Of a DNA stretch of 64,000 nt, positions 12,266-46,840 are shown one piece after another. Under the pieces are notes generated by a model. That model had not been told where the DNA came from, did not search any database, and was given only the letters and a program-made list of their open reading frames with translations. Origin of the DNA: a virus; IMG/VR virus record IMGVR_UViG_3300046501_000132, positions 96,001 to 160,000 of that record; one strand, given 5' to 3'. How positions within the stretch are numbered: the stretch's first letter is position 1; each line of letters starts with the position of its first letter. Made by a program: the position numbers and the translations under genes.

Positions 12266-12294
12266 TTTACTATGCTATGTAAACGTAGTAGACT
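12266..12294 (+). promoter_or_regulatory. early-type promoter of the glycosyltransferase operon (TTTACT-N17-TAGACT)
   Basis: Consensus -35 and spacing. Confidence 0.65.
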
Positions 12295-12322: not shown

Positions 12323-13549
12323 ATGAAAATTGCGGCTATCTATTGGCCCACTTCCTCGGTTGGAGGAATTAACTCGGTGCTCGTCGCTCTCCGGAAGGAA
12401 GCAGAGGCCAACGGAGACACTTTTGATGTGATCCGTTGTGGGAATCTGAAGACGATCAACCCGACCAAATTCGATGAACCGCAGCTGATTCGCGGCGGCG
12501 ACACGTTCATCACCGTCCATGGCGAGTGCTCTCACCACCCGGACAAAGTTCAAGGCACGGTCAAGTTCTTGGAAGAGAACTATGACGCGCTATACTTCGC
12601 ATACATCTGTCCTCATGCCAATAAGGCTTATGGGGATGATCCGGTATTCTTGCCGATCTATACTGACACCAAACTCCCGAAGGTCGCATTCATCACGGAT
12701 GCTTACTGGGACACATACAAAGACTGGGGCCTGATGTGCCTCCCTCACGTCAAGAAGACGTTGGTGACTCAACCCGCCTACGCGGAGCCGCTTCTGAAGT
12801 ATGGACTGCCGGTTCAAGCAATTGATGCGCCGATCTTTCCTCAAGACGTAAGTCACATCAAGCGTTCGGAAGAACCGCTGGTGGTCTGGACTTCCCAATG
12901 GAAGAACATCAAGGGAATTACCAAGCTGATGCCGGTAATTCCCGAGATCACCAAGGTCGCCAAGATGGATATGTTCTCCAATGGTATCCTGTATTACCAG
13001 ATGCGAGAAACCGATGAGTGGAAGGCGGCAATCGGTCGAGATCACTTCAAGGGATTCGATGGTCAAGGTGAAGCAGATTTCTTTGGCTATGTTCCCCTGG
13101 AGCAAATTCCTGAGATTCTGAAGCACTCGTGGTTCATGATTGACCTTCAGGGAATCGGCAATCCGAAATTCAAGGCATATACGCAAGGTGCGTATAATAT
13201 CACGACAATCGAAGCGCTGTTGTATGGCTCGTGCCCGATCCTAGCCGATCAAGCCAAGCGTTCGATCATCCCTAATGAATTCTTCCTGACCGTTGAAGAC
13301 GCGCGTCAGATTCCGGACCTGATCAAGAATAATCTGAAGTTCGCTCGCGATCAAGATCGTATCGCCGCTGCGCGGGAATGGGTTCTGGAACGCCATTCGT
13401 CCAGCAATATGTATAAGCAAGTGATCGATGCTCTGAACGGGCCGGACCCAGAACCGTTCGATCCAAGCAAGATCGTAGAAGCCGCGCCTGAACCGGAAAA
13501 GAAGCCGGAACCTGCCGCTGCTATGGATATGTTCAATATGTTTGTGTGA
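12323..13549 (+). CDS. GT-B fold glycosyltransferase 1
   Basis: N-terminal beta strand + 'GG', 'KNIKG', 'YNITTIEALLYGSCPI' (GT4-like ExxxxG.P); GGAG SD at M18 of the ORF-track protein. Confidence 0.85.
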   Translation: MKIAAIYWPTSSVGGINSVLVALRKEAEANGDTFDVIRCGNLKTINPTKFDEPQLIRGGDTFITVHGECSHHPDKVQGTVKFLEENYDALYFAYICPHANKAYGDDPVFLPIYTDTKLPKVAFITDAYWDTYKDWGLMCLPHVKKTLVTQPAYAEPLLKYGLPVQAIDAPIFPQDVSHIKRSEEPLVVWTSQWKNIKGITKLMPVIPEITKVAKMDMFSNGILYYQMRETDEWKAAIGRDHFKGFDGQGEADFFGYVPLEQIPEILKHSWFMIDLQGIGNPKFKAYTQGAYNITTIEALLYGSCPILADQAKRSIIPNEFFLTVEDARQIPDLIKNNLKFARDQDRIAAAREWVLERHSSSNMYKQVIDALNGPDPEPFDPSKIVEAAPEPEKKPEPAAAMDMFNMFV

Positions 13550-13552
13550 TCT

Positions 13553-14116
13553 ATGACGACATTTTACGTGCTGGAAGCCCACATTGACGATTCGTTCTTG
13601 TCGATGCACCGTCATATGACGGATTGGATCAAACAGGGCCATACCGTGATCATCGGTTCAGTCTACACCGGAGGTCGGAAACGCGACACGGAAATCAAGG
13701 CTTACGCTGAGCTCATAGGAGCCTCTACGCACTGCTATTTCCATGACCCTGAGCTAGACCCAGACCTGGGTGAGTTCACGCTCCCTAGCTCATTTATGCT
13801 GGGCCGTGAAGCACTCACAATCGTATGTCCTATCGCTATCCAGAACCACCAGCACGTGAAGCTGAGGGAATGGGTGGAGAAGTCGGTCAAGCCCGATCTG
13901 TATTACTTGGACATTCCGTACTACACCAAGGCCAAGAACGAAGACGAGGTCAACGAGAAGCTGAAAGGCTTCAAGATTGTGAGTGTGAAGAAGCCAACTC
14001 ACATGAAGGGCAAGGACAAGTACTGGAAGTGCTTCAAAGGACAATCCAAGTATTTCTTCTATAACCCGCCTGAGAGTTGGGTTCAGATTCCGGAAATCCT
14101 ATTGGAGAAAGAATGA
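13553..14116 (+). CDS. PIG-L/LmbE-family N-acetylhexosaminyl deacetylase
   Basis: 'AHIDD' (HxDD), 'R..E', 'NHQH' (HxDH-equivalent), 'YYLDIPY' motifs. Confidence 0.8.
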   Translation: MTTFYVLEAHIDDSFLSMHRHMTDWIKQGHTVIIGSVYTGGRKRDTEIKAYAELIGASTHCYFHDPELDPDLGEFTLPSSFMLGREALTIVCPIAIQNHQHVKLREWVEKSVKPDLYYLDIPYYTKAKNEDEVNEKLKGFKIVSVKKPTHMKGKDKYWKCFKGQSKYFFYNPPESWVQIPEILLEKE

Positions 14117-15348
14117 AGATCATTATCTATGATAACTTCGTTTGCTCTCCGATGGAAGGTCGTGGTGCGGCGGGTGGTCTGGAGAAGGTGGCGAAGGATG
14201 ATGCTTTCAATCTGACTCGCGCTGGTCATGATGTGATCTTCTTGTATGCGGGACATCAATGCAAGTATGACTTCCCGTTCCGGACGATGCAAGTTCACGA
14301 GAAGTCGAAAGAAGACGTCATCGAGCAAGACGGTAGCATCGTCGCTTGGCAGAATCGGGTCGTGGCGAATGTGATCAACATTATCAAGCGTGAAGAGCCT
14401 GATATCATGTTGTATCATAGTCATACGACTTCCCCGGCCAAGAAGATCATCAAGGAAACTGGAATCCCGACGCTGATGACGATTCACGGGTTCCTGACGG
14501 GCAATCTGTTTATCGACACCGGGCGGATCACCGCCTATCGTGAACTTTGTGAAATGGGCGCGTATCTGGTCACCAATACAGAAGCCACCGGAAAGCGCAT
14601 CTTCAAGCAGGCAAAGTTGGTTCGTGATCGCTACGTCAAGAACGAGCAGGATTATTGGAACTTCGTCCGAATCATTGATGATCAGCTTCCGTTCTATCAT
14701 GACTTCCACCGGACATTCATGTTCGTGGAAGAAGAATTTGAGATCAAGGAATCGAGCGGGCGGGCGATCACCGCATCCCGCGCCGATCCTCTGAAGCTGA
14801 CCCACAAGTTCAAGGACATCAAGCACCCGCTGGACATCTTCTGGAAGTCGTTCCCATCGACAAGTAAGACTTATCCCAAGTGGCTTGAAACCAACCGTGG
14901 ATACTTCGGGGATAATCCTGATATCAAGTTCTATTGGAATTGGAAGTATAGCGGTATCATGGATACGTTCTCTCAAGCCAAGGCGTGTCTGATTACCTGG
15001 CCGGATGAGACTTTCGGATTGACTGCATTCGAAGCCGCACAAAAGGGCGTGCCGTCGATCTGTATGCATAAGGGTGAACTCAGTTGTACGGCTGAGTTCC
15101 TGTCGCGTGTTAGCAAGCCAGTTCTCATCGACTATCGGGACAAGAACTTCGTCGATCAAGTTGTAGATGCGCTCAATAATATCGATGATAGTCTTCATAC
15201 TCGTCAGGCTTTCGCAGAGGACTTCCGTACATACTTCAGCTATACTAGCTGGGTGAATGAGAAAGAGGAATTTATGCGCAGAGCGATCAATATGATGAAA
15301 GAGGTTGGTCGGCCTGAACCGAGTTCCCTGTTTAACGATTGGAGCTGA
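14113..15348 (+). CDS. GT-B fold (GT4-like) glycosyltransferase 2
   Basis: 'GGLEK', 'L...GHDV', 'T.HG', 'ETFGLTAFEAAQKGVP' canonical GT4 motif. Confidence 0.9.
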   Translation: MKIIIYDNFVCSPMEGRGAAGGLEKVAKDDAFNLTRAGHDVIFLYAGHQCKYDFPFRTMQVHEKSKEDVIEQDGSIVAWQNRVVANVINIIKREEPDIMLYHSHTTSPAKKIIKETGIPTLMTIHGFLTGNLFIDTGRITAYRELCEMGAYLVTNTEATGKRIFKQAKLVRDRYVKNEQDYWNFVRIIDDQLPFYHDFHRTFMFVEEEFEIKESSGRAITASRADPLKLTHKFKDIKHPLDIFWKSFPSTSKTYPKWLETNRGYFGDNPDIKFYWNWKYSGIMDTFSQAKACLITWPDETFGLTAFEAAQKGVPSICMHKGELSCTAEFLSRVSKPVLIDYRDKNFVDQVVDALNNIDDSLHTRQAFAEDFRTYFSYTSWVNEKEEFMRRAINMMKEVGRPEPSSLFNDWS

Positions 15349-15349
15349 T

Positions 15350-15793
15350 GTGAGTGTTCTGAATGCAGTGAAGCGCGCCTATGGGGTCATGGAACAACGT
15401 GGGTGGGATACGGTCTATTGGGCTGTCGATCTCCACGGTGTATGTCTGGAATCCAACTACAAGCAGGGTGGTTACCAGTGGATCAACCAGACCGCGAAAG
15501 AGACGCTTCAGTTGATTTCGATGCTCCCCGAGAGCAAGATCATCCTCTGGTCGTCGGTACACGCCAATGAACAATACGATATTATCAAGTTCTTTCGGGA
15601 TGCAGATATTGCAGTTTTCGATTTCAATCAAAACCGATTCGAGAAAAGCAATCACTGTTCCAACTTCGATGAGAAGTTCTACTTCAGCGTTTTGCTGGAT
15701 GATAAGGCTGGATTTGATCCGAAAACAGATTGGGCTGAGATTAACACGTATTTGACGTTGCAAGCGTATGGAAGAGGGTTGTTCAATGAATGA
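15350..15793 (+). CDS. HAD-superfamily phosphatase
   Basis: 'VDLHG', 'ILWS', 'K.Y...LLDDKAG' motifs. Confidence 0.7.
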   Translation: MSVLNAVKRAYGVMEQRGWDTVYWAVDLHGVCLESNYKQGGYQWINQTAKETLQLISMLPESKIILWSSVHANEQYDIIKFFRDADIAVFDFNQNRFEKSNHCSNFDEKFYFSVLLDDKAGFDPKTDWAEINTYLTLQAYGRGLFNE

Positions 15794-15973: not shown

Positions 15974-16234
15974 ATGAGTATGAGTCAGTACGCGACAAAG
16001 GAAGAATACCAAGCGTCGCAAAACAATAAGCCGGTGGTGCATTTTCTCAATGAGGCCACTTTCGAAGACAACTGGATGGGAACCGGCTGTAAGGTTGCCC
16101 ATTGTGTGGTGATCGATCACCCGCGTCTTGGTCAGAGTGATGTACGCACGAGTGCAGTCATCAAGATCAATGAGGATGGTTCGTTCGAAACTCGCAATAG
16201 CATCTACCAACCGATTCAACAACTGAACGGTTAA
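15974..16234 (+). CDS. conserved phage hypothetical protein
   Basis: AAGGAG SD; 'DHPRLG...VRTS.V.......FET.NS.Y' motif. Confidence 0.7.
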   Translation: MSMSQYATKEEYQASQNNKPVVHFLNEATFEDNWMGTGCKVAHCVVIDHPRLGQSDVRTSAVIKINEDGSFETRNSIYQPIQQLNG

Positions 16235-16734
16235 TGGCTGGGCGGGTAGTTAAACCGCCAGTCAGACGAGAAAACGCTTACACAGAGGTGAGCGTTTTTC
16301 TTGCTGGCAGCATCGAAATGGGCAAGGCGGTCGATTGGCAGTACGCACTAGGCGAATCTCTGACCTACTTCCACGAAGTGGGTAATATATACAATCCAAG
16401 GCGTGACGACTGGGACTCCAGTTGGGAACAGCGCAAGGATAATCCTCAGTTCAACGAACAAGTCACTTGGGAGTTGGATCATATTGAGGATGCAGACATC
16501 GTATTCTTCAACTTTATCCCCGATACGCAATCCCCCATCACTCTCCTAGAGCTGGGATTTGCGCTGGGTCAGATGAAGGAAGTCATCGTTTGTTGTCCTC
16601 CAGGCTTCTGGCGTAAGGGAAATATCGACATCCTTTGTGATCGTGAGTCGGTGACAGTTTATGATGACTACACGCAGGCAATCGCTGCACTATATAAGAG
16701 GATACACGGAATCTATGAGGAAATGAAACAATGA
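16234..16734 (+). CDS. nucleoside 2-deoxyribosyltransferase-like protein
   Basis: 'VFLAGSIEMG.A.DWQ', 'NPRR.DWD', 'QV.WEL', 'SPITLLELG', 'GFWRKGN'. Confidence 0.85.
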   Translation: MAGRVVKPPVRRENAYTEVSVFLAGSIEMGKAVDWQYALGESLTYFHEVGNIYNPRRDDWDSSWEQRKDNPQFNEQVTWELDHIEDADIVFFNFIPDTQSPITLLELGFALGQMKEVIVCCPPGFWRKGNIDILCDRESVTVYDDYTQAIAALYKRIHGIYEEMKQ

Positions 16735-16973
16735 ATATTGAAGTGCAAATCGCATTGCTAGAAAAACGCAAGCGTGAAATCGAACTTGATTATGAGGCTG
16801 ATGATAATCGCCTCCAAGGACTTCTGGCTGAAGGTCGGAAGATTGCCAAGATTGTAGACGCCAAGAAAGAAAAAGCCCAACATCTGGAATTCGCCATCAC
16901 CAATCTTCGCGCTCTGCATGACATTGAGGTTGAGGAAGCGGTCCCTGAGGAAGACCCTTGGGGTGATGATTGA
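16731..16973 (+). CDS. coiled-coil hypothetical protein
   Basis: ATGA-coupled; heptad character. Confidence 0.6.
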   Translation: MNIEVQIALLEKRKREIELDYEADDNRLQGLLAEGRKIAKIVDAKKEKAQHLEFAITNLRALHDIEVEEAVPEEDPWGDD

Positions 16974-17337
16974 CATCACCAAGTTTCATAATCGGGCCAA
17001 ACTGATATTCGACCGAGAGAATCTAGGCAACTACAAGCAGCGCGTAGTTGCTTTTGTCTTAGATTCCAAAGGTCGGATACTCACAGAAGGATGGAATTCT
17101 TATACCAAGACGCATCCAGTCCAACAACAAGCTGCCTTGGCTCATGACGAGAAGAAGTGTTTTCTCCACGCTGAGATCCACGCTCTCACTCGACTGCGGT
17201 ATAAGCAGTTGTCTAAGCAAGAAACAATTGTGGTGCTTCGGATGGACGTTAGTAAACGCTTACTTCCGGGCGCGCCCTGTAGCATTTGTCAAGATGTTAT
17301 CTCTCAGTTCGGGATCACGAACATCGTGCATTCCTAA
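16966..17337 (+). CDS. cytidine/dCMP deaminase-fold protein
   Basis: 'HAE' and 'PCSIC' zinc motifs. Confidence 0.85.
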   Translation: MIDITKFHNRAKLIFDRENLGNYKQRVVAFVLDSKGRILTEGWNSYTKTHPVQQQAALAHDEKKCFLHAEIHALTRLRYKQLSKQETIVVLRMDVSKRLLPGAPCSICQDVISQFGITNIVHS

Positions 17338-31982: not shown

Positions 31983-33152
31983 TTACTTGCTCCAGCTCAA
32001 CATTTCCGTCTTCATCTGCTCGCGCAGTTGATCGATCTTGGTCGAAGCGGCGGCGCGTTCCTGGCGTCCAGCTTCCTGGATCTGCTTCACTTGCTTGACC
32101 GAGTCGATCAGCTTGTTCTGGCAGTATTCCAGAGTCTCGACATCAACCACCGAGCGTTCGGATGCCTTTGCCACTGCAATTGCGTTCATATTATTCAAAT
32201 CTGCCGCCTTCTTGAAGAATTCGTTTGTTTTATCGTCCATAGCGGACCCGATCTCAGCGTTTTCCTTCTGCTTCAGCTTGATGATCGTGAGGCTGATCTG
32301 CTTCTTCCAGGCCGGAATCGTCGTATTGATCAGATCGTTGAACTTCTCCACCATCGCCACATTGCCGGTCTGAATCTGACGGATTTCCGGCGCGGTCAGA
32401 AGAGCAATCTGCTGCATTCGCTTCAGACGGTCGATCTGCTTTTCCCACAGCTTGATCCGCTGCTCGAATTCGTTGACCGCCTGAATCTCAAACTGATCGG
32501 TCGAACTCTCCGCGTGTGCTTTCTGAACCGCATAGTCTTGGTTCATTTCGACCAGGAGCGCCTGAGCCGCTTCGATGGAGTTACCCAAGTCGTGGTATTC
32601 CTGGAGATTCTTCTCATACAGGTCTTCCAGGAACTTGTTGTCGGAGCGCATCGCGTCTTGACGCTTCTCCAGATCGGACACGACCTTACCAATGGAAGTG
32701 CTCGTGTCTTCGAACTTCGCCAGGACTTCAACCTTTTTCTTCTTGGCCGAGCCAATCAGCTTGCTCAGGAAGCCCTTATTCTTGTCCATGTTCAGATCAT
32801 CGACTTTGACCTGGCTCGTCAGCGCGAGAATCTGGGTGATGCCATCACCAAACTCGCCCATCTTGCCAGTTGTCGTTCTCTGAAGGATGACGTCCGAAAG
32901 GCGCGCGACTTCCTTACCGGCTTCAGTGCCAAACTCGCTGATGGTCATCTGATCCTTGACGCCCCGCGCTTTGGACAGTTTCTGCCCGACCTGGGCATTC
33001 AGAATTGGAACCGTTGCCGGGAGATTCCGAACCGGGTCAATTCCATCAGTGTAATTGCCCAACACCTTCATCGGAGCGACTTGCGGGGCCTCGGCCATCA
33101 TGACCTTGTTTTCGACTTTCGGCTCATTACCGAACATACTTGCATAAGACAT
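31983..33152 (-). CDS. telA: TelA/KlaB toxic-anion resistance family protein
   Basis: Coiled coil with 'P.IR.IQ..N..M..K......TIP.WK.Q', 'ERSVVD.ETL...Q..L...V.....I...G...R'. Confidence 0.88.
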   Translation of the reverse strand: MSYASMFGNEPKVENKVMMAEAPQVAPMKVLGNYTDGIDPVRNLPATVPILNAQVGQKLSKARGVKDQMTISEFGTEAGKEVARLSDVILQRTTTGKMGEFGDGITQILALTSQVKVDDLNMDKNKGFLSKLIGSAKKKKVEVLAKFEDTSTSIGKVVSDLEKRQDAMRSDNKFLEDLYEKNLQEYHDLGNSIEAAQALLVEMNQDYAVQKAHAESSTDQFEIQAVNEFEQRIKLWEKQIDRLKRMQQIALLTAPEIRQIQTGNVAMVEKFNDLINTTIPAWKKQISLTIIKLKQKENAEIGSAMDDKTNEFFKKAADLNNMNAIAVAKASERSVVDVETLEYCQNKLIDSVKQVKQIQEAGRQERAAASTKIDQLREQMKTEMLSWSK

Positions 33153-33162
33153 TTTGTTTCCT

Positions 33163-33417
33163 TTATTGATAGTAGGGTGTAGAAACACAGCCGACGACCG
33201 AATATTTCAGCGACCTCTTGGGAGGAAGCTCATCGATGTATTGGTGGTCAAACAACCAATTCCGAATCAGTTCCGCCGCGACTTCATCCTTGGCGTAGAA
33301 CAGCGCAGGCCATTGGATGCATGGGATATAGTCATTAATGAACCGCTGCCCAAGACGCTGGTGATCCTCTTTCTTGCGTTCATGGATCTCCAACAGGATA
33401 TCAAGACTCTGCATCGA
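33163..33417 (-). CDS. hypothetical protein
   Basis: 'RLGQRF.N.YI....WP.LFY' motif; start likely MQSL. Confidence 0.55.
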   Translation of the reverse strand, partial: SMQSLDILLEIHERKKEDHQRLGQRFINDYIPCIQWPALFYAKDEVAAELIRNWLFDHQYIDELPPKRSLKYSVVGCVSTPYYQ

Positions 33418-33751
33418 CAATCCCCAACTTGTTACGAACCCAGGCAAGACGCTTTTCGTTCGTATGGGCCTTATGCTTCGTTCCCTCTTGAATATAGTGG
33501 ATCATATCTTCATTGAATGGATAGGATTGGCTCAGACCATCATCCTTGAGCATGTCCTGAAGTTCCGTCCCCACTCGACCATAGTGCCAATCACCCAAGT
33601 TGGCTTGGTTTGACCAAAAATAAAGATTAGAACACAGACCGTAGCCACGAGAGAAATTCTTGGATTTCAATCCATAATCTCCCGCCAAGGGCGCGCCGGA
33701 CTCCACCCATGTAATGTAGGCCGTCAGAAACTGCTTCATCAAATCAGACAT
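33401..33751 (-). CDS. hypothetical protein
   Basis: 'FL.AY..W...GA...FSR..GLC.N' phage motif; start likely MSDL. Confidence 0.6.
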   Translation of the reverse strand: MSDLMKQFLTAYITWVESGAPLAGDYGLKSKNFSRGYGLCSNLYFWSNQANLGDWHYGRVGTELQDMLKDDGLSQSYPFNEDMIHYIQEGTKHKAHTNEKRLAWVRNKLGIVDAES

Positions 33752-33968
33752 CAGAATACACCCTTCCCGGAACCGGCTCAAAGCCAGCAAGTTGTACATG
33801 AGTTCCCCAGAAAGTCCGATAACCTTGACCGATCACGCAATAATAGCAGATCGCATGGTCTACGAACTCCGGAAACCGTTTCAGAAACTCAGCTGAATGT
33901 ACATCATTCAGTTGAATCTTGTAAGCGTCACCCGCCTTTGTGTTAGCGAGGATTTCATCCAGCGTCAT
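33744..33968 (-). CDS. hypothetical protein
   Basis: ATGA-coupled. Confidence 0.5.
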   Translation of the reverse strand: MTLDEILANTKAGDAYKIQLNDVHSAEFLKRFPEFVDHAICYYCVIGQGYRTFWGTHVQLAGFEPVPGRVYSDV

Positions 33969-34792
33969 AGAATCCCCTTGAGAGCCTTGGAAATATCCTC
34001 CAGCCCATCCTTCCCGCTGATCATGGAGTTACGAATCACGTTCTCCACGAGAGGGATGATAGTCATCCCGAGTTCATCGGCAAACGTATCACTATCGGAC
34101 AGCGACTTCTCCATCTGTTCCAACTGGCTCTTGTTAAGAACCATCAGAGACAGAGATTTGGCAAACATTTCCTTGCGCTTCAGAGCCAAGTCCTTGACCA
34201 TCTGATCCGGATTCTTCACCGCAACGTAGTTCAGAGTATTGACGGTGTTATCCAAATCCACATACAATCGGTTCAGAATCAACTTGGCACCAGAGAGTCC
34301 GTCCAGGAAAGGCTTAATATGAATTTTGGCCAGTTCCTGATATTTCCTCATCGCCGCGTCTAGCTTCGATTTTACCTCGTTTCGCACCTGAGCGGGGTCG
34401 GTCTTAGATGAGCGTAGGAAGCCGAAAATACCCGCGCCCTTACCGGAGGACTCGATTAGCTGTAGCGCCTCCAGGATGAGCGTTTTAGGCTCATTTAGCA
34501 TAGTCTTCAGCTGAGCGAACTCGGTAACGACGTTATCAACACAGCGGTTCGCTTCGGTCGCTTCGGAGACGTGCCAATCGCCAACGTCGCTGATGTCGGT
34601 GACTGCCAGTTTGGCGACTTCTTTCCCATTGAGAATAAAGTCAACTCGCGTCGAAGTGGTTGTGAGATTATTTTCCTTCAACCAGGCTTCGATGTCATCA
34701 AACCGGGAGTTGCTTTGCTTCGTTTCACCAAACAGATTCATTTTCTTGTCCACCACCCCGTTGGAATCTCCGAACAGGTTCTTGTAGCTCAT
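33965..34792 (-). CDS. helical protein, possible divergent TelA/KlaA-like partner
   Basis: All-helical; N-terminus MSYKNLFG resembles TelA MSYASMFG; 'G.G.FG.L' and 'T.IP' at positions similar to TelA. Confidence 0.5.
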   Translation of the reverse strand: MSYKNLFGDSNGVVDKKMNLFGETKQSNSRFDDIEAWLKENNLTTTSTRVDFILNGKEVAKLAVTDISDVGDWHVSEATEANRCVDNVVTEFAQLKTMLNEPKTLILEALQLIESSGKGAGIFGFLRSSKTDPAQVRNEVKSKLDAAMRKYQELAKIHIKPFLDGLSGAKLILNRLYVDLDNTVNTLNYVAVKNPDQMVKDLALKRKEMFAKSLSLMVLNKSQLEQMEKSLSDSDTFADELGMTIIPLVENVIRNSMISGKDGLEDISKALKGIL

Positions 34793-34989
34793 CAGTATCT
34801 CTGAGTTGTTACTTCGTTACCGCAAGGAGGGCACTTGATGAACTTGTGGACGTCGGCCCCTCCACCAATATCCCTCGAAGTATGAGTTTGGATATCAGCC
34901 GGAACATATTCCAACGTTGCTCCACAATTACGACAGATGATCTCTTTGACCACAGACGGATGCGGAGTTGCATTAACTACACGGACCAT
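34792..34989 (-). CDS. zinc-ribbon protein
   Basis: CxxC...CxxC. Confidence 0.7.
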   Translation of the reverse strand: MVRVVNATPHPSVVKEIICRNCGATLEYVPADIQTHTSRDIGGGADVHKFIKCPPCGNEVTTQRY

Positions 34990-34996
34990 TATTTCC

Positions 34997-35347
34997 TCAC
35001 TTGCACTTACGTTCGATTTCAGCCACAACGCGGTCGATCACGCCTTGCGGATCGGGAGTCAGAACCCGGACGCTGTTATAGCGACCAAAGTAATAGGTCA
35101 CACCCGAATCACCGTCCACTTCACGCTTCCCGCCGCTGATGTAGGAAAGAGTATTGGCGTTGATGTACGTGCCAGAAGCCGTCACCTTGATCAGACATGG
35201 GCGACCACCACCTTCAGTGCGCGGCGTATATTCGTCTTGCGGGTGGGAAATACCCTTACCAAAAGCGGGAGCAACCATCGTGAAGAACACGAGAGTTAGA
35301 GCAGCGGTCCAGATGATGAGTTTGCGGAGAGCTTGGTCCATATTCAA
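34997..35347 (-). CDS. exported protein with signal peptide
   Basis: Basic + hydrophobic N-terminus ending APAFG. Confidence 0.6.
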   Translation of the reverse strand: MNMDQALRKLIIWTAALTLVFFTMVAPAFGKGISHPQDEYTPRTEGGGRPCLIKVTASGTYINANTLSYISGGKREVDGDSGVTYYFGRYNSVRVLTPDPQGVIDRVVAEIERKCK

Positions 35348-35787
35348 TCCTCGTAATAGTCAAAGAAATCATCAAGATCATCCGGATCATCATAGAAACG
35401 ATCCGGATTTTCCGCATTCCAGGCCAACGCGGCCTTATGATATTTCACAGCGGCTTCGCGGGTCAGACAGAGACGGTTGGTGTTATGGTTCGTACCAATT
35501 CCGCAGTCACCTAACGAGCGCCAACAATCGGAGTGACGGCCGTGATGATCATACTCGCGGGCGTAGACCCAGTTGCTACGTAGATCAAAGTCGCTGTGCC
35601 CCATCGGATTTCCTTTAGCGAACCGATGATTCCGATAGCTTTGTGGAATCTGGAGAATCTTCACTTTTTGGGGTTCACCCCACAGGTGTCCATAGACGTG
35701 CCAAAGCACTACGCCAGGCTTGATATCATCATATTTGGCGATACCCTTGCAAACAGTATCCGGATGGGGCAGCAACTTATTATCCAT
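35344..35787 (-). CDS. hypothetical protein
   Basis: First gene after TATAAT at 35816-35821. Confidence 0.6.
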   Translation of the reverse strand: MDNKLLPHPDTVCKGIAKYDDIKPGVVLWHVYGHLWGEPQKVKILQIPQSYRNHRFAKGNPMGHSDFDLRSNWVYAREYDHHGRHSDCWRSLGDCGIGTNHNTNRLCLTREAAVKYHKAALAWNAENPDRFYDDPDDLDDFFDYYED

Positions 35788-35859
35788 TATACATTCTCGT
35801 TTAGTCGATAGGTCTATTATACTATGGATCCATACTTACGGGGATAATAACCCTAAAAG

Positions 35860-35896
35860 AAAAAGGGGGAATGTCTATGACGACATTCCCCTTTTT
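35860..35896. terminator. intrinsic terminator
   Basis: AAAAGGGGGAATGTC...GACATTCCCCTTTT. Confidence 0.8.
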
Positions 35897-35906
35897 CTTG
35901 ATACAT

Positions 35907-35969
35907 TTACTTCTTCACCCAACCATACCACACAAGTGCTGCACCACAGATAAATCCGATAATGAACAT
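35907..35969 (-). CDS. 20-aa single-TM peptide (MFIIGFICGAALVWYGWVKK)
   Basis: GGAG upstream; 3 nt after vWA stop; ends before terminator. Confidence 0.5.
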   Translation of the reverse strand: MFIIGFICGAALVWYGWVKK

Positions 35970-35972
35970 TAC

Positions 35973-37004
35973 TTAAACTCCGTTAGGCCAATAGAGAACA
36001 GCCGAACCTTCAAAGAGTTTCCGATTTGTGGATGTCGACTGAACATAAATCACAAACGAACCGTGATCACCAGGATTGATCTTGCAATCGCCATAGTGAG
36101 GCAGACCCATCAGATCACGAGCAGCGGCACCTTCATACACAGCGCCGGACTTCTTGTCCTGGATGATGATCTTCTTGTAGTCCTGAACCTTCCGTTCGGG
36201 CTTCACCAGTTCATAGAAACCAGCGCCCTTGGTATAACTACCCTTGATGCGACGTTCACAGAAGTCCTTGATCTGATCGCCATCTTCATCTTCGGACACC
36301 GGCCAGATAGACACTTCCTTGGAAATATCGGTCAACACCTTCTTGACGTCAGAAGCCTTCACTTGGGACATATCGGTGTAGAAACTGGAAACCGACTTCG
36401 CACCCGAAGCCCGCGCCGCGTAGAAGCCCTTCATAGCGGTCGTGGTCGCTTGGGTGGCAACTTCCATACCACGAGCCGAATTGGTATCCCATTCCAGCAC
36501 ATTCCCTTCCGGTAGGCCAAGATCGCGCATCAAGCGAGACTTATAGCCGCGCGGAACCCGGAACACGAAGGTCCAGCGGTCGGTAGATTGCAGCTGTCGA
36601 ATCAGACGACCCAGCGACGCGCCGGTGTATTTACGCGAAGAATTGTCTTCCCCATCGGTCGTCACCATGATCAGAAACGAAGTGGTTTCATCGTTCACGT
36701 CCGGGACATCGTTAAATTGCTCGATCAGAACACCAACCGAGTCGTATAGCGGAGTGCTCGAACCATCGGCAGCATAGCTGGACAGCGGAGTCAGGGCGGT
36801 CACGCTCGACAGTTTGGTTTCAAAGACATTCCCAGCCGGACGGCCAGTACCACACTTCACCACTGATACAATCGTATCCTGGTTATGGGCAATCGCTTCT
36901 TCCTTGATCGAAGACACGTTTGCATTATAGTCACGCATCGCCGCCGTGGTAATATGACCCATCGAAGCCGAGTGATCCCGGCTCAAACCAATATAATTAC
37001 GCAT
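35973..37004 (-). CDS. von Willebrand factor A (vWA) domain protein
   Basis: MIDAS 'DHSASM', 'TPLYDS', 'TDGEDNSS', 'WTFVF'. Confidence 0.88.
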   Translation of the reverse strand: MRNYIGLSRDHSASMGHITTAAMRDYNANVSSIKEEAIAHNQDTIVSVVKCGTGRPAGNVFETKLSSVTALTPLSSYAADGSSTPLYDSVGVLIEQFNDVPDVNDETTSFLIMVTTDGEDNSSRKYTGASLGRLIRQLQSTDRWTFVFRVPRGYKSRLMRDLGLPEGNVLEWDTNSARGMEVATQATTTAMKGFYAARASGAKSVSSFYTDMSQVKASDVKKVLTDISKEVSIWPVSEDEDGDQIKDFCERRIKGSYTKGAGFYELVKPERKVQDYKKIIIQDKKSGAVYEGAAARDLMGLPHYGDCKINPGDHGSFVIYVQSTSTNRKLFEGSAVLYWPNGV

Positions 37005-37078
37005 GTTGCTTATTTTCCTTATTCAATACTAACAACTCACACAAAGAGAAAGCCGCTCGACAGGAGCGGCTTTTTGTT

Positions 37079-37144
37079 TTACATCTTCATGATGGCGTAT
37101 ACAAAGATCAGCGCCATGATGATAATGAAGACTTCGTTGGACAT
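37079..37144 (-). CDS. 21-aa single-TM peptide (MSNEVFIIIMALIFVYAIMKM)
   Basis: TAATG overlap with terD stop; terminator at 37049-37075 follows. Confidence 0.55.
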   Translation of the reverse strand: MSNEVFIIIMALIFVYAIMKM

Positions 37145-37749
37145 TAGTAGCCCGGAACCTTGTAGGCCTGGAAGAAGTCTTGCAGACCCTTGTTGAAGCC
37201 CTCACCAACCGCTTGCATCACCCACTCGCCGCTGCTGTTCTTCTTGAATTCCACGAACATCATAGCGGTGGCTGTCGATGCGTTCTCGTCCAGATCGTAC
37301 TCCGCGAGGCACGTATTGTTCACGTCGTAAATCTTGGCGTAGGCGTCATCCACCTGGCCGAAGTTTTGACGGCGATTGACTGCGTCGTGGATCGTCACGA
37401 TCACGGTAGCCCGCGAGGCTTCAGCCGGCATCTTGCTGAAGTCGACCACGATCTGTTCATCGTCGCCATCGCCATTACCCGAGCGATTGTCGCCGCTGTG
37501 CTTCGCCACGCCACCAGGCAGTTCCTTTTGACCGTAGAAGCAGACCCAGCCATCGTCAGCGGTCGGCAGAGTCAGCACACGGCCGAACGGGGTTCCATCT
37601 TCCTTGAGGATGAACAGCGTTGCGTCCAGGTCGAAGTCTTGTTGCGTGTCGAACTTCTTGGGAGTCCAACCCAGACCAATGGTTGCAACCTTCAGACCGA
37701 ATTCCTTGCTGAGATTCAGCTTACCACCTTTTTCAAGCGAGAGAGGCAT
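37144..37749 (-). CDS. terD: TerD-family protein
   Basis: 'SL.KG...NLSK', 'GLGW', 'FDLDA', 'HSGDNRSG.GDGDDEQI', 'TIHDA..R.QNFGQV'. Confidence 0.95.
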   Translation of the reverse strand: MPLSLEKGGKLNLSKEFGLKVATIGLGWTPKKFDTQQDFDLDATLFILKEDGTPFGRVLTLPTADDGWVCFYGQKELPGGVAKHSGDNRSGNGDGDDEQIVVDFSKMPAEASRATVIVTIHDAVNRRQNFGQVDDAYAKIYDVNNTCLAEYDLDENASTATAMMFVEFKKNSSGEWVMQAVGEGFNKGLQDFFQAYKVPGY

Positions 37750-37821
37750 TTCCAATTCCTTGTTACGTTTCGAGAAACGGGCGGGTTATCCGCCCATTAC
37801 ATAATTATACTGCGTTTCTAC

Positions 37822-38832
37822 TTACGCCGCTACTGCATTCGTATGACGATTAGCGATGAAGCTATGAACTACGGACACCGCCAGAATCGCCGCAGCAACC
37901 CCACCCGTCAGGATTTCGTGGATTTCGAACTTGGTTGCCAGGATCATCATCAGAGCCAGCGAACCGATGGACCAGAAGGCACCGTGTTCCAGGAACTTGA
38001 GCGAACCAAGCGTACCAGCATCGACCATATGAATCGTCATCGACCGGACGAACATTGCACCAATCGCCAGACCGAGGGTAACGATGATGATCTGGTCGGA
38101 GATTGCAAAGGCGCCAATCACACCATCGAAAGAGAACGAAGCATCGAGCACGTTCAGGTAGCAGAACATACCAAAGCCATTCGCAGCGGCGCCGGCAGTA
38201 TTCTTGCTTTCGAGGACATGTTGCAGCAAATGCACGAGCATCCAGGTCACCACACCAGCAATCGCCGCGTATTGGAATTCCATGATATGGTCGGTCGGCA
38301 CGATCATGATCGACAGGATCGCCAGAATGCCCATACCCACGAGTACCAGACCGAGCGTGCCAGCCTTACCCAAGAAGGTCATCAGCGGTTCGATACCAGG
38401 GATCCAGTGATGTTCCTTTTCTTGATCCATGAAGAAAGCCAGGAATACCATTAGCAGGAAGGCACCGCCATAGCCGGCAATCTTCGTATGTGCCGCTTGT
38501 ACCGTGGCAGCATAGTTGGCCGCATCCTGGAACGGTAGAGCGAAGGATTGTCCCAGACTCAGAGAACTCGTGGCGTACACGATCAGGATCGGGAACAGGA
38601 AGCGAACCGCGAACACGGAGAACAACATACCCCACGTCAGGAACCGCTTTCGCCACTTATCGTCCATATCCTTCAGAATTTTGGCGTTCACTACAGCGTT
38701 GTCGAGGGACACCGAGACTTCCAGCAGACCGAGAATCGCAGCGGTCAGTGCGCCGACCGGACCATAGAACCAACCGCATACCGCGATTGCAACGACCGTG
38801 AAGATCGCACTTGCTTTGTAATACTTGAACAT
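37822..38832 (-). CDS. TerC-like integral membrane protein (DUF475 type)
   Basis: 'LEVS.S.DNAVVNA.ILK.M...W..RFLTWG', 'LDASFSFDGVIGAFAIS', 'LEHGA.W.I'. Confidence 0.9.
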   Translation of the reverse strand: MFKYYKASAIFTVVAIAVCGWFYGPVGALTAAILGLLEVSVSLDNAVVNAKILKDMDDKWRKRFLTWGMLFSVFAVRFLFPILIVYATSSLSLGQSFALPFQDAANYAATVQAAHTKIAGYGGAFLLMVFLAFFMDQEKEHHWIPGIEPLMTFLGKAGTLGLVLVGMGILAILSIMIVPTDHIMEFQYAAIAGVVTWMLVHLLQHVLESKNTAGAAANGFGMFCYLNVLDASFSFDGVIGAFAISDQIIIVTLGLAIGAMFVRSMTIHMVDAGTLGSLKFLEHGAFWSIGSLALMMILATKFEIHEILTGGVAAAILAVSVVHSFIANRHTNAVAA

Positions 38833-38859
38833 TTCAGTTACCTTTGATGATTGAAGGGT

Positions 38860-39543
38860 TTACTTCTTGATCCAGTTGCAGAATTCCTCGCACAGCAGGG
38901 CTTCGTACATCACATCGTCGCTCGTTGCTTCCAGATCGGGGAAGGTCACGAAGCCCACGTGATCATACTTGTCGGCCATACGCTTCAGGAAATCGAAACG
39001 CTCACGACCGATGCCGATCAGTTGCACGTAGGTATTCGCTTCACCCAGGAGCACGATCTGCTTTTCGGCTTCGATGGAGGAACCTTGATCTTCACCATCC
39101 GTAATGAACATCAGGTATGACGGTGCATCAACGGTCTTCTTGCCGAACAGACCGCCGAGGAAACCCGACTTCTTGGCGCTGCTGTCCTTGCGAATCTGGT
39201 TCATCGCAATGGCGTATTCCGTACCGGACCACAACACCCCACCGGCTTCACGGAGGAACTTGTTGCTCACGTAGGAACCGAAGTCATCCGGCGTCACATC
39301 GTTCATCTTTTGGATGGACGAACCGAATGCGTAGGATTCGATGGATTGGTTATCATCGAAGCGCATTGCAACCGGAATCAGACGGTCCACCAGTTCCGAC
39401 ATCACACCGCTGCGATATAACGGGCGCGCCGAACCGGACACATCCAGCGCCATCTTGACAGCCAGCTTGATGTCGGTCGGAACCTTGCGCTTTTCCAGGC
39501 AGAGGCGAACCAGTTCTTGTTTCTTTTCGAGATTGAGAGGCAT
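38860..39543 (-). CDS. TerF-like vWA domain protein
   Basis: 'LDVSGS....Y.SG', 'FDDN', 'GT.YA', 'FITDG', 'Q.IGIG...F.FL'. Confidence 0.85.
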   Translation of the reverse strand: MPLNLEKKQELVRLCLEKRKVPTDIKLAVKMALDVSGSARPLYRSGVMSELVDRLIPVAMRFDDNQSIESYAFGSSIQKMNDVTPDDFGSYVSNKFLREAGGVLWSGTEYAIAMNQIRKDSSAKKSGFLGGLFGKKTVDAPSYLMFITDGEDQGSSIEAEKQIVLLGEANTYVQLIGIGRERFDFLKRMADKYDHVGFVTFPDLEATSDDVMYEALLCEEFCNWIKK

Positions 39544-44254: not shown

Positions 44255-44845
44255 TTAATTCAGGGTCAGCGGAGTTTCCTTGGACTTATCATAAGTCCCA
44301 GCTTGTTGTCCGCCTTCAACACGCTTTTGATTCTGAGCATTCTTGAGATAGTATGCCTTGGTGATATCGCCTTCATTCAGTCCGATCAGAACCGCGCCAG
44401 TCTCAATCAGATTGAGTAGGCTAATCAGCGCCCGGAATTCATTCTCATTATAGATTGATTCGATGAAGTTGTATTGGGCCTTAGCAAAGTACAGATGTTT
44501 ATCCTCATACTTCCCATACATAGTCGTTTCGACTTGTTCGTTTTTCAACAAGTCTTTGATATACGATAGATCGTTGTTCAGAAGGACAAGAAGCATCGCA
44601 AAATGCACAGCATCGATCAGTTCGAATGCCGCTTTGTCTTTGTCGATAGGGACAGCAAGCGCCTTGCCGGACCACCACTTCCAGGTCGAACGGATTTCCT
44701 CAGCGAACTCAGCAACTTCCGTTTGGAAGGCAAAGATCGCCTGTCCCTTCATCACAGTCTTACGCCATTCTGGACCGTTATACTTGATATTCAGAGCCTC
44801 TTGGGCTTCGAACATCTCAATCAGGTCCATCTTATCGAAAATCAT
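44255..44845 (-). CDS. dimeric all-alpha dUTPase/dCTPase family
   Basis: 'Q..LN', 'E.AE..E....WKWW', 'E.ID..HF', 'Y..KN..N..R...G..Y.K'. Confidence 0.88.
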   Translation of the reverse strand: MIFDKMDLIEMFEAQEALNIKYNGPEWRKTVMKGQAIFAFQTEVAEFAEEIRSTWKWWSGKALAVPIDKDKAAFELIDAVHFAMLLVLLNNDLSYIKDLLKNEQVETTMYGKYEDKHLYFAKAQYNFIESIYNENEFRALISLLNLIETGAVLIGLNEGDITKAYYLKNAQNQKRVEGGQQAGTYDKSKETPLTLN

Positions 44846-45399
44846 AGCGCTCCTTCTTGATGTATGAAGGAATAGAAGAAACGATCAAACTCAGCCGTCC
44901 CATTCATTCGATTAATGAATAGTTGATCATAATCCTTGAACTCACGAACATACTGTTCGAAGTCCGAAGGGGGCAGGCCATCCCGGCTTTCACGTTCGAT
45001 CTTCAGAACCGGGATACCAACGTCCTGAATGAATTCCCATTCCTGTGGAGTCCGGAAGTCCGTAATGATAAACAGCTTATCAGGATTATAGCACTCGTCC
45101 AGAGCGTTCCAGTTGTTATCTTCGAACTTATGAACAAAGAAGTGCGGATCAACGTCACGAACCTTACCGACCGTCAACCAGATTTGGCGTGGAGTTAGGT
45201 TATTCGGGTTCTGTGGATGTACAAACGGCAAATCCTTCTGCTCCGGGGTGATATCCATCGGGAGCCAAGGGAAGATTTGAGATGCAAGACGGCGCACCTC
45301 ATCCGAAAAAGAAAGGCGCACCGCGCCCCGAGTTGCTACCAGATGATCACAAAAGAAGTCCTTGCCGCTTTTGTATTCACCCATAAATGCTACGATCAT
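44842..45399 (-). CDS. deoxynucleoside monophosphate kinase (gp1-like)
   Basis: 'G..KSGKD', 'SF.D', 'TPRQ', 'IITDFR..QE'; own AGAGG SD. Confidence 0.88.
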   Translation of the reverse strand: MIVAFMGEYKSGKDFFCDHLVATRGAVRLSFSDEVRRLASQIFPWLPMDITPEQKDLPFVHPQNPNNLTPRQIWLTVGKVRDVDPHFFVHKFEDNNWNALDECYNPDKLFIITDFRTPQEWEFIQDVGIPVLKIERESRDGLPPSDFEQYVREFKDYDQLFINRMNGTAEFDRFFYSFIHQEGAL

Positions 45400-45726
45400 T
45401 TTGCCTCTTTTAACTTGATAACTCTCATCGTAGATCCATCGTTCCCTCAGGTTTTGCTCCTTGGTGATAAATCTACAATTTCCCACACGATAAACGCCTT
45501 CATCCCGATACCTTCCGAGTTGGTAAGAATCGGGTTCCAATCCAATTTGGTTCGCTCGCGTCAACCCGGCATCTACAGCTAACCGGGTGTACTGCTCAAA
45601 CGTCAACTCACATTGTCTCTGGAGCCTAACTGCTCGTGCCTTTAGGTTTTGCCAATTCTTTAACCAGGCACGCAGTTCGCTAGGATCCAGTCCAATGACT
45701 TTTAGATAGTTTTCACGAGCATCCAT
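45400..45726 (-). mobile_element. degenerate HNH-like endonuclease domain, in frame with the dNMP kinase
   Basis: 'W..LKARA......ELTFE.Y', 'R..D.G.Y.VGNCRFIT..QN..E'; no stop before kinase. Confidence 0.55.
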
Positions 45727-45754
45727 CAACGCCTTGACCTCAGCCCGTTTCAAC

Positions 45755-46840
45755 TTACACCTCGATGTCGAATTTGCGGAATGAAGACAACTCGATGGCT
45801 CGAACCAATTCAACCGGGGCTTCAGTCAGATCAACAACCGCACTCAACTCAACACCCCGCTTCGCGGCGATATAATGAGCAACGAGTTGTGCATACACCC
45901 ACATCAGGTTATTTTCAAGCGGAACGTTGTATTCCAAGAAGGTATGACCCAGATGAGAGATAATCGTGCTCAGAATGAACTCAGGCTCATCGGTCGTGAT
46001 CGCTTCGATATATTGAGCAACCAGATCGCTGAAGAAAGCCTTCCATAGTCGAATCTCAGGGCCGATTAGCGGAACATCACTCTCATCATACGAATTCGTA
46101 TAGTTGGCGGAGATTTCGGTTGCATCATCCGCTTGACCCCGCGAAAAGTCGTATAGGTGGGCATTCGTCACGTGCCAGCGATATGGGCCCAGCTTCAGTT
46201 GAGGGCTGCTCTTCTTGATCTCGTTGTACATCAACTCGTGAAGGAACGAGAACTCAAATGGATTGATCGAGCCGGTACCAAAGATGATGTCGCCACTTCG
46301 CTGAATCACCTTAGTACAGAATTGATCTTCGCCTTCAACGTAGAAGTTGATACCCAAGTTACAGGGTCGATCCTTACCCAGTTCTCCGAAGCCGAACCGC
46401 TCTTCAATTGCCTTGGTCGAATCCTTATGAAGATCATGAATCGTCACATACGCACGGCGGGTATATAGACTATCTCGGATGAACAGATCGGGGATAGACA
46501 CCAACTGATTCTCATCATAGAATCGCGGGCCATAGGCACCGCTCCAAGTCTCACCATCATCCGAATACTGAGGCGCACGCGGGAGGAAGAAAGACAAGTA
46601 AGGATTCACACGATCATCACCGGCCATAACCCAGAAAGTCTCCGCGATTAGAGCGAAGATATTGGATTTGCGACCTTCAAGGTGTAGATGTCGGGATCGG
46701 GGATTGCCTAGCTCAAACGTTACGTCAAAGATAGACGTGCAACCACCGTTACGGGAAGGGCGATAATGGCCCTCATTGATAATTGTATTGAATGCTTCTA
46801 GAACAACTTGTGAAACGGTCCTGCCTCTTACCAGGTGCAT
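45755..46840 (-). CDS. thymidylate-synthase-family enzyme, probable dUMP hydroxymethylase
   Basis: 'YSDDG', 'GAYGPR', 'TRRA', 'PCN', 'QRSGDIIFG...N', 'HLYD'; Asn at the pyrimidine-specificity position. Confidence 0.8.
   Translation of the reverse strand: MHLVRGRTVSQVVLEAFNTIINEGHYRPSRNGGCTSIFDVTFELGNPRSRHLHLEGRKSNIFALIAETFWVMAGDDRVNPYLSFFLPRAPQYSDDGETWSGAYGPRFYDENQLVSIPDLFIRDSLYTRRAYVTIHDLHKDSTKAIEERFGFGELGKDRPCNLGINFYVEGEDQFCTKVIQRSGDIIFGTGSINPFEFSFLHELMYNEIKKSSPQLKLGPYRWHVTNAHLYDFSRGQADDATEISANYTNSYDESDVPLIGPEIRLWKAFFSDLVAQYIEAITTDEPEFILSTIISHLGHTFLEYNVPLENNLMWVYAQLVAHYIAAKRGVELSAVVDLTEAPVELVRAIELSSFRKFDIEV

Follow-up and report, generated by a model that had tools for sequence, protein, structure and literature searches.

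In base J of trypanosomes, the hydroxymethyl group of 5-hydroxymethyluracil (hmU) in DNA carries a sugar, a neutral beta-glucose that a GT-A enzyme attaches after oxidation of thymine. In phages of the ViI/PhiW-14 lineage, thymine is replaced by hmU, which is then hypermodified (PMC8989533), and the known amine-bearing thymidines are products of a kinase/amino-acid route. Glycosylation of phage DNA bases is also known and includes N-acetylhexosamine (HexNAc) on 5-hydroxymethylcytosine (hmC) and a HexNAc oligosaccharide on the thymidine of phage Carin-5, the DNA sugars with defined enzymes being neutral or acidic. Here we analyze a window of 64,000 nucleotides, bases 96001-160000 of the 170,684-bp virus record IMGVR_UViG_3300046501_000132, which is rated complete (G000 hereafter; G codes designate virus records and L codes the loci that were compared). 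The window contains a cassette of three genes for a GT-B glycosyltransferase (GT1), an LmbE/PIG-L-type deacetylase, and a GT4-like glycosyltransferase (GT2). As in base J, the acceptor would be the hydroxymethyl group of hmU in DNA, and we consider it reasonably probable that the cassette glycosylates hmU with an amino sugar after replication and then frees the amine.

The polymerase, dUMP hydroxymethylase, dNMP kinase, and dUTPase of G000 are 30-38% identical to those of Salmonella phage ViI and, since the hydroxymethylase is also 42% identical to PhiW-14 gp230, these matches identify the phage as an uncultured Ackermannviridae/PhiW-14 relative. The three enzymes of hmU supply that the initial annotation had recognized in the window were all confirmed by homology (Table 1). 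The dimeric dUTPase is probably a dTTPase as well; a bifunctional dTTPase/dUTPase has been reported in a related phage (PMC13458397). Neither ThyA nor ThyX was found in G000, in a search of limited sensitivity given that PF00303 also missed the hydroxymethylase. The pathway of ViI, PhiW-14, M6, PaMx11, and SH-Ab 15599 (PMC8989533, PMC13458397) thus resembles the one proposed here in phage lineage, in the hydroxymethylase, dNMP kinase, and dUTPase, in the presence of a clade-1 aGPT-Pplase, and in the amine at position 5, but it relies on a kinase, a clade-2 aGPT-Pplase transferase, and a pyridoxal phosphate (PLP) decarboxylase that were not found here, where nucleotide-sugar transfer without a phospho intermediate is proposed instead. 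The amino-acid:DNA transferase (clade 2) was sought in G000 with PF18724 and ViI gp247, a search that matched 26 of 40 virus records, among them one of PhiW-14 size, and the PLP decarboxylase with family models and the proven ViI/PhiW-14 enzymes; neither was detected. The P-loop 5-hydroxymethyldeoxyuridine (5-hmdU) DNA kinase escaped detection with PF18748, with three proven kinases, and with a joint profile, which a highly divergent kinase could elude; in a control, a leave-one-out profile recovered PhiW-14 gp37 at 5e-5, and PF18748 missed it. Homologs of ViI gp67, gp243, gp247, and gp226 and of PhiW-14 gp37 are absent from G000. By homology, the absence of the amino-acid route, noted in the initial annotation for the window, appears to hold genome-wide, including for the 5-hmdU DNA kinase that might have been encoded elsewhere in the genome. 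Moreover, among the 40 virus records, the 8 with GT1 all lack the amino-acid transferase and the 26 with the transferase all lack GT1. The records are not independent: some 20 of them come from closely related Ackermannviridae, GT1 itself was the criterion by which most of its carriers were picked, and some are incomplete.

The clade-1 aGPT-Pplase of G000 (Pfam HMUDK_hel) is encoded outside the window at C1:77575-78642 (L001:11576-12643) and has no P-loop kinase domain. It is a stand-alone protein, its gene lying beside those for an NT5C nucleotidase and a single-stranded DNA-binding protein. Proven hmU kinases are P-loop proteins (PMC8989533), and the HMUDK_hel name was rejected as proof of a kinase route, the protein being of the helical clade-1 type. 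Full-length homologs occur across Ackermannviridae and, because phages of the amino-acid route also carry them, the clade-1 protein appears to track hmU rather than the sugar.

The GT-B fold of GT1 is supported by homology and by its structural model. The T4 DNA alpha-glucosyltransferase AGT (1y6f; VIA Z 26.5, rmsd 4.0, 345 residues aligned) scored highest of 48,161 representative chains, followed by BshA (Z 25.2) and PimA (Z 25.0). An extended profile built from 137 GT1 relatives that were collected without AGT also returned AGT as its top match in the PDB (E 6e-14, 55 bits), with BshA second (52 bits); this profile is the only sequence link, as Pfam and PHROG searches of GT1 gave no match to the AGT family. 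GT1 is thus a GT-B enzyme closest to AGT by a small margin over BshA. Its family seems confined to viruses: only 1 of 185,579 prokaryote genomes contained a member, on a 2-kb contig of a metagenome-assembled genome. The system of T4 and T6, in which AGT and the TET-associated glycosyltransferase (TAGT) of T6 act on hmC, resembles the one proposed here in its GT-B fold, in the formation of a hydroxymethyl pyrimidine before replication with the sugar added afterwards, and in an optional second transferase. It differs in that the base here is of the uracil type, that the transferases share only 12% identity, and that a deacetylase is almost always present here, implying that the sugar is an N-acyl amino sugar and not glucose. 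AGT-type enzymes take UDP-glucose as donor and hmC in DNA as acceptor, with base flipping; for GT1, the gene context points to an amino sugar and to hmU, and we propose that it is the first sugar transferase onto hmU in DNA.

The deacetylase has a Rossmann-type LmbE fold, by homology and in its model (Dbv21, Z 18.5, rmsd 2.9, 179 residues aligned); the next six rows of the structural list are all LmbE-like, after which the scores fall to Z 7.3, and Pfam alone gives a weak match (E 0.022). Its closest structures, Dbv21 and teicoplanin Orf2*, are enzymes for N-acetylglucosamine (GlcNAc) already on a glycopeptide scaffold. With BshA/BshB and MshA/MshB, these systems share with the cassette the transfer of GlcNAc followed by zinc-dependent deacetylation of the LmbE type (PMC4101496), and differ in having small-molecule or glycopeptide acceptors in cells and in the low identity, 15-17%. 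The metal site is intact by homology: His10, Asp12, Asp13, and His101, which comprise the zinc ligands and the general base, show no variation among 32 homologs, nor does Tyr123, and the HXDD + H motif of the LmbE/PIG-L family (PMC4101496) is present. The proposed activity is hydrolysis of the GlcNAc amide. A search for longer proteins found no fusion of the deacetylase, which is weak evidence.

The auxiliary histidine, however, is missing. The first histidine of the HxxH motif, three residues before the last ligand and equivalent to His144 of MshB and His161 of Orf2*, is replaced by Asn98; most of the 32 homologs keep His at this position, whereas L052, L016, and each of the three lineages with GT2 have Asn. 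MshB without His144 retains at most 1% of its activity (PMC4101496), which speaks against deacetylation here, and since the GT2-linked subtype carries Asn at this position, we are less confident of a free amine in this phage than in the family. The target could still be hmU in DNA and the product neutral, the deacetylase variant being slow, retuned, or a binding partner, so that the DNA would carry HexNAc or HexNAc-hexose, or the amine on some sites only. Consistent with such an outcome, the Asn variant and GT2 moved together, and there is a precedent for HexNAc on hmC with no deacetylation in the phage glycosyltransferases linked to 5mYOX (bioRxiv 10.1101/2023.12.21.572611), which place N-acetylhexosamine and disaccharides on DNA bases as proposed here but act on cytosine after TET-type oxidation, the text of that paper making no mention of deacetylation. 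We nevertheless hold a neutral product to be unlikely: conservation is complete at the three zinc ligands, at Asp12 as the general base, and at Tyr123, His99 adjoins Asn98 and might substitute for the lost residue, and the Asn variant is conserved and arose in more than one branch.

The partnership of GT1 and the deacetylase extends far beyond this phage. GT1 homologs gathered from virus and metagenome collections formed 51 other lineages after merging at 90% identity, and a PIG-L gene lies in the GT1 locus in 37 of the 40 lineages with at least 700 bp of downstream sequence. When at least 4 kb of context was available (29 lineages), PIG-L was found in 27, the dUMP hydroxymethylase in 20, the clade-1 aGPT-Pplase in 18, and the kinase in 1, and all hydroxymethylase motifs that were extracted have the uracil-type Asn. 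Distant loci typically combine GT1, PIG-L, the clade-1 protein, the hydroxymethylase, and an HD nucleotidase beside a PolA gene, in several orders that are shuffled among unrelated phage types, and in the sibling locus L013 the pair lies directly ahead of the hydroxymethylase, kinase, and dUTPase. From this survey, the conserved unit is the GT1 + PIG-L pair and not the triad, for which the initial annotation had suggested a check of co-occurrence with dUMP hydroxymethylase; GT2 is accessory. Since the complete record G003 (58.8 kb; L068:6689-13626) encodes TAGT, PIG-L, an epimerase-like frame, the clade-1 protein, and the hydroxymethylase without GT1, the deacetylase can apparently also pair with another transferase, a GT-A enzyme.

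Several observations weigh against an action of the pair on hmU in DNA. The lead of AGT over BshA amounts to just 1.3 Z and 3 bits at the low identity given above, and a narrow GT1 profile had no significant match to AGT (hhalign probability 5.8). The family was not found in any cultured phage: tblastn searches of 50,697 phage records with the three cassette genes and with two homologs gave no match. The cassette lies 30 kb away from the hydroxymethylase in this genome. Furthermore, two related prophage-like elements (L051:10001-11649 and L081:10001-11670) carry GT1 + PIG-L just before the GpA terminase and portal genes, and neither a hydroxymethylase nor an oxygenase (TET/JBP) was recognized in their 21 kb; no hydroxymethylase was found in 17 kb around the L015 pair, and no gene of the thymidylate synthase family or hydroxymethylase in the 51% of the genome covered for the T4-like record G004 (L070:5452-8543). 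L051, L081, and L015 branch beside the clade of this phage with support 89/99. The initial annotation had expected that a triad in phages without hydroxymethylase would speak against hmU as the substrate; this situation was encountered in part, for the pair only, in two prophage-like loci and two incomplete contigs, and it makes a non-DNA or other-base role conceivable. Finally, restriction sites with one T are avoided in G000, at 0.57 of expected versus 0.81 in 52 kb of ViI. Six-base palindromes as a whole occur at 0.67 of expectation, CTCGAG is absent, and the avoidance weakens with the number of T per site (0.54, 0.57, 0.70, 0.90), a trend that fits T modification and that we do not count as support, for want of a proper unmodified control.

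These observations raise the alternative that the enzymes act on a host surface glycan or lipopolysaccharide, thereby masking a receptor, on a virion protein, or on a small molecule, in the manner of BshA/BshB and MshA/MshB. GT4 + LmbE pairs are indeed known in thiol, glycosylphosphatidylinositol, and glycopeptide pathways, and to the near tie of BshA with AGT and the prophage-like loci may be added that the PglF/E/D-like genes of L052 are usually surface-glycan genes and that the cassette adjoins a tail gene here. We regard a non-DNA target as quite unlikely, given the repeated and tight operon linkage of the pair to dUMP hydroxymethylase in unrelated phages, the mutual exclusion of GT1 and the amino-acid route, the occurrence of TAGT as a partner gene, the near absence of GT1 from cellular genomes, and a promoter of host type rather than late type. 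DNA is, in our opinion, very probably the target.

GT2 conforms to the E-x7-E signature of GT4 enzymes, and both its Glu299 and Glu307 are invariant in the alignment. It accompanies GT1 elsewhere only in two other close lineages (L003 and L056) and one distant locus, and it is missing from the siblings L012/L054, L014, L058, L052, and L013. Between the same flanking genes, this third slot is filled by GT2 in L003 and L056, is empty in L012/L054 and L014, and contains TAGT in L058, as it does in five other lineages; in L052, it is occupied by a dehydratase, an aminotransferase, and an acetyltransferase of the type that makes an acetamido-dideoxy sugar. TAGT has been proposed to add a second glucose in T6 DNA (PMC13390438), and its presence in the third slot argues for DNA as the target as well as for GT2 as a chain extender. 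The acetamido-sugar pathway of L052, which could supply a donor of the bacillosamine or quinovosamine type, supports an N-acetylated donor. In the GT1 tree, every GT2 carrier pairs with a sibling without GT2, and identity among the three GT2-linked deacetylases is 75-89% but drops to 40-50% when they are compared with deacetylases of phages that match in GT1 at 77-90% (L003 versus L058: GT1 90%, deacetylase 40%), so GT2 and the special deacetylase travel as one unit. On their own, GT2 relatives are found in other T4-like phages as well. Addition of a second sugar by GT2, its proposed role, is the weakest step of the scheme.

Other loci show further variations around the pair. The three L052 genes (L052:11805-14762) encode a sugar acetyltransferase, a DegT-type aminotransferase, and a UDP-GlcNAc dehydratase-like protein directly after GT1 + PIG-L. 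Genes for a sulfotransferase, a GT2 homolog, a GT1-like GT-B enzyme, an adenosine phosphosulfate (APS) kinase, and a dUMP hydroxymethylase are clustered in L061 (L061:220-5485), which suggests a sulfated sugar on hmU, and sulfotransferase-like genes are found in or beside the cluster also in L011, L024, and L025. One lineage has a fusion of GT1 with an S-adenosylmethionine-dependent methyltransferase, and another encodes such a methyltransferase between GT1 and PIG-L (L082:10001-11770 and L005:11613-12218); no locus other than L005 has a P-loop hmU kinase. In L070, GT1 + PIG-L directly follow the polymerase, recombinase, and helicase genes, a position near the T4 site of genes 42 and beta-gt.

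Our working model is the following. Before replication, thymine would be replaced by hmU through the dUMP hydroxymethylase, dNMP kinase, and dUTPase, as assigned by homology. After replication, GT1 would bind DNA in the manner of AGT and transfer an N-acetylated amino sugar to the 5-hydroxymethyl oxygen, most likely from host UDP-GlcNAc, in alpha linkage and without a phosphorylation step. The zinc deacetylase would then strip the acetyl group, so that the major groove would hold a protonated amino sugar, and GT2 may add a second sugar at some or all sites. The cassette would in this way stand in for the kinase and amino-acid transferase of related phages and block host nucleases. The initial annotation had already envisaged GlcNAc-ylation, deacetylation, and extension of hmU; the likeness of GT1 to AGT, the occurrence of the pair in hydroxymethylase operons of unrelated phages, the exclusion of the amino-acid route, and the third-slot genes favor it, whereas the identity of the sugar and the DNA substrate are still inferred, GT2 has become an accessory, and the amine is uncertain because of Asn98.

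The same product might be reached in another order or at another level, by deacetylation of the UDP-sugar first, by action of GT1 on the hmdU mononucleotide before replication, or with the clade-1 aGPT-Pplase as a required partner. In favor of such variants, 18 of 29 lineages encode the clade-1 protein next to the pair, and genes for HAD-like, nucleoside-deoxyribosyltransferase-like, and deaminase proteins follow the cassette. The closest deacetylases, however, act after transfer, AGT works on polymer DNA, and phages of the amino-acid route also have the clade-1 protein, so that we deem these variants improbable. More broadly, and tentatively, since we rate it slightly short of an even chance, a modular, widespread, and kinase-free route to cationic amino-sugar thymidines may exist, in which an AGT-like transferase and an LmbE enzyme would make glucosaminyl-hmU in polymer DNA and the third slot (GT4 with a retuned deacetylase, TAGT, sulfotransferase, methyltransferase, or acetamido-dideoxy sugar pathway) would diversify it.

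The literature searched did not describe hmU as a substrate of an AGT-like transferase together with an LmbE deacetylase, a comparison to which Iyer et al. 2013, who possibly list such neighborhoods, did not belong. The oligosaccharide-thymidines of Carin-5, YerA41, and SP-15 (PMC12686479) are similar in that a thymine-derived base bears HexNAc and that the cluster encodes glycosyltransferases and a deacetylase, but they involve a long phosphate linker, a PolA family, and an annotated polysaccharide deacetylase, and the cassette genes had no match in the phage collection. What this window adds is a case inside the ViI/PhiW-14 lineage, together with the mutual exclusion between GT1 and the amino-acid route and a third slot whose content can be swapped. 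If correct, the model would imply a new natural base, the first case of an LmbE enzyme that acts on DNA, and a single lineage that gains positive charge in the major groove by two unrelated chemistries, the sugar route converging on the amine charge that sister phages derive from amino acids. It would also provide an enzyme tool to label hmU in DNA that leaves a free amine handle, and the cassette offers a handle on the clade-1 aGPT-Pplase, a companion of both routes.

The initial annotation had described the three genes as tightly coupled behind an early promoter and had quoted a motif set for their products. The motifs are present, and the coupling stands: GT1 and the deacetylase genes are separated by 3 nt, and the deacetylase and GT2 genes overlap by 4 nt, with a GC content by codon position that matches core replication genes. 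The predicted promoter is conserved among siblings, its -10 element being TATAAT in 4 of 5 of them, and was missed by a strict promoter scan; it is probably early or middle, "early" being an inference only. The small gene for a HAD-like protein ends the cassette in most siblings, regardless of the content of the third slot.

Table 1. Positions in the window of the cassette, its promoter, and the genes for hmU supply
Feature	Position	Strand	Basis
Sigma70-type promoter	12266..12294	+	TTTACT-N17-TAGACT; aligned elements at the same place in 5 sibling loci
GT1, GT-B glycosyltransferase, virus-restricted family, 408 aa	12323..13549	+	Model pLDDT 94; distant T4 AGT relative
LmbE/PIG-L zinc de-N-acylase, GT2-linked subtype, 187 aa	13553..14116	+	Fold match, metal-site motif
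GT2, GT4-like glycosyltransferase, 411 aa	14113..15348	+	PF13439 E 4e-8, above cut-off; Glu299-x7-Glu307
Small HAD-like protein	15350..15793	+	phrog_1238 E 4e-4; homologs in L003, L012, L014
Dimeric dUTPase	44255..44845	-	PF08761 E 1e-19
dNMP kinase domain	44842..45400 (approximate boundary)	-	38% to ViI kinase, E 1e-34
dUMP hydroxymethylase, hmU source	45755..46840	-	42% to PhiW-14 gp230; aligns with ViI gp66; uracil-specifying Asn present

After the cassette, a nucleoside 2-deoxyribosyltransferase-like gene (PF15891) and a small cytidine-deaminase-like gene are found at 16234-17337 of the window, as in most siblings. The frame of the dNMP kinase (window 44842-45813, minus strand) contains about 140 more open codons upstream of the kinase domain, a part that resembles a free-standing endonuclease-like open reading frame in L013. 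No tRNA genes were found in the window, and tellurite-resistance-type genes (TelA, TerC/DUF475, and vWA-TerF) lie at 31983-39543 on its minus strand. Elsewhere in the genome, two genes at C1:47244-49779 look by eye like NAMPT and a fusion of nicotinamide mononucleotide (NMN) adenylyltransferase and Nudix, possibly an anti-defense pair that rebuilds NAD.

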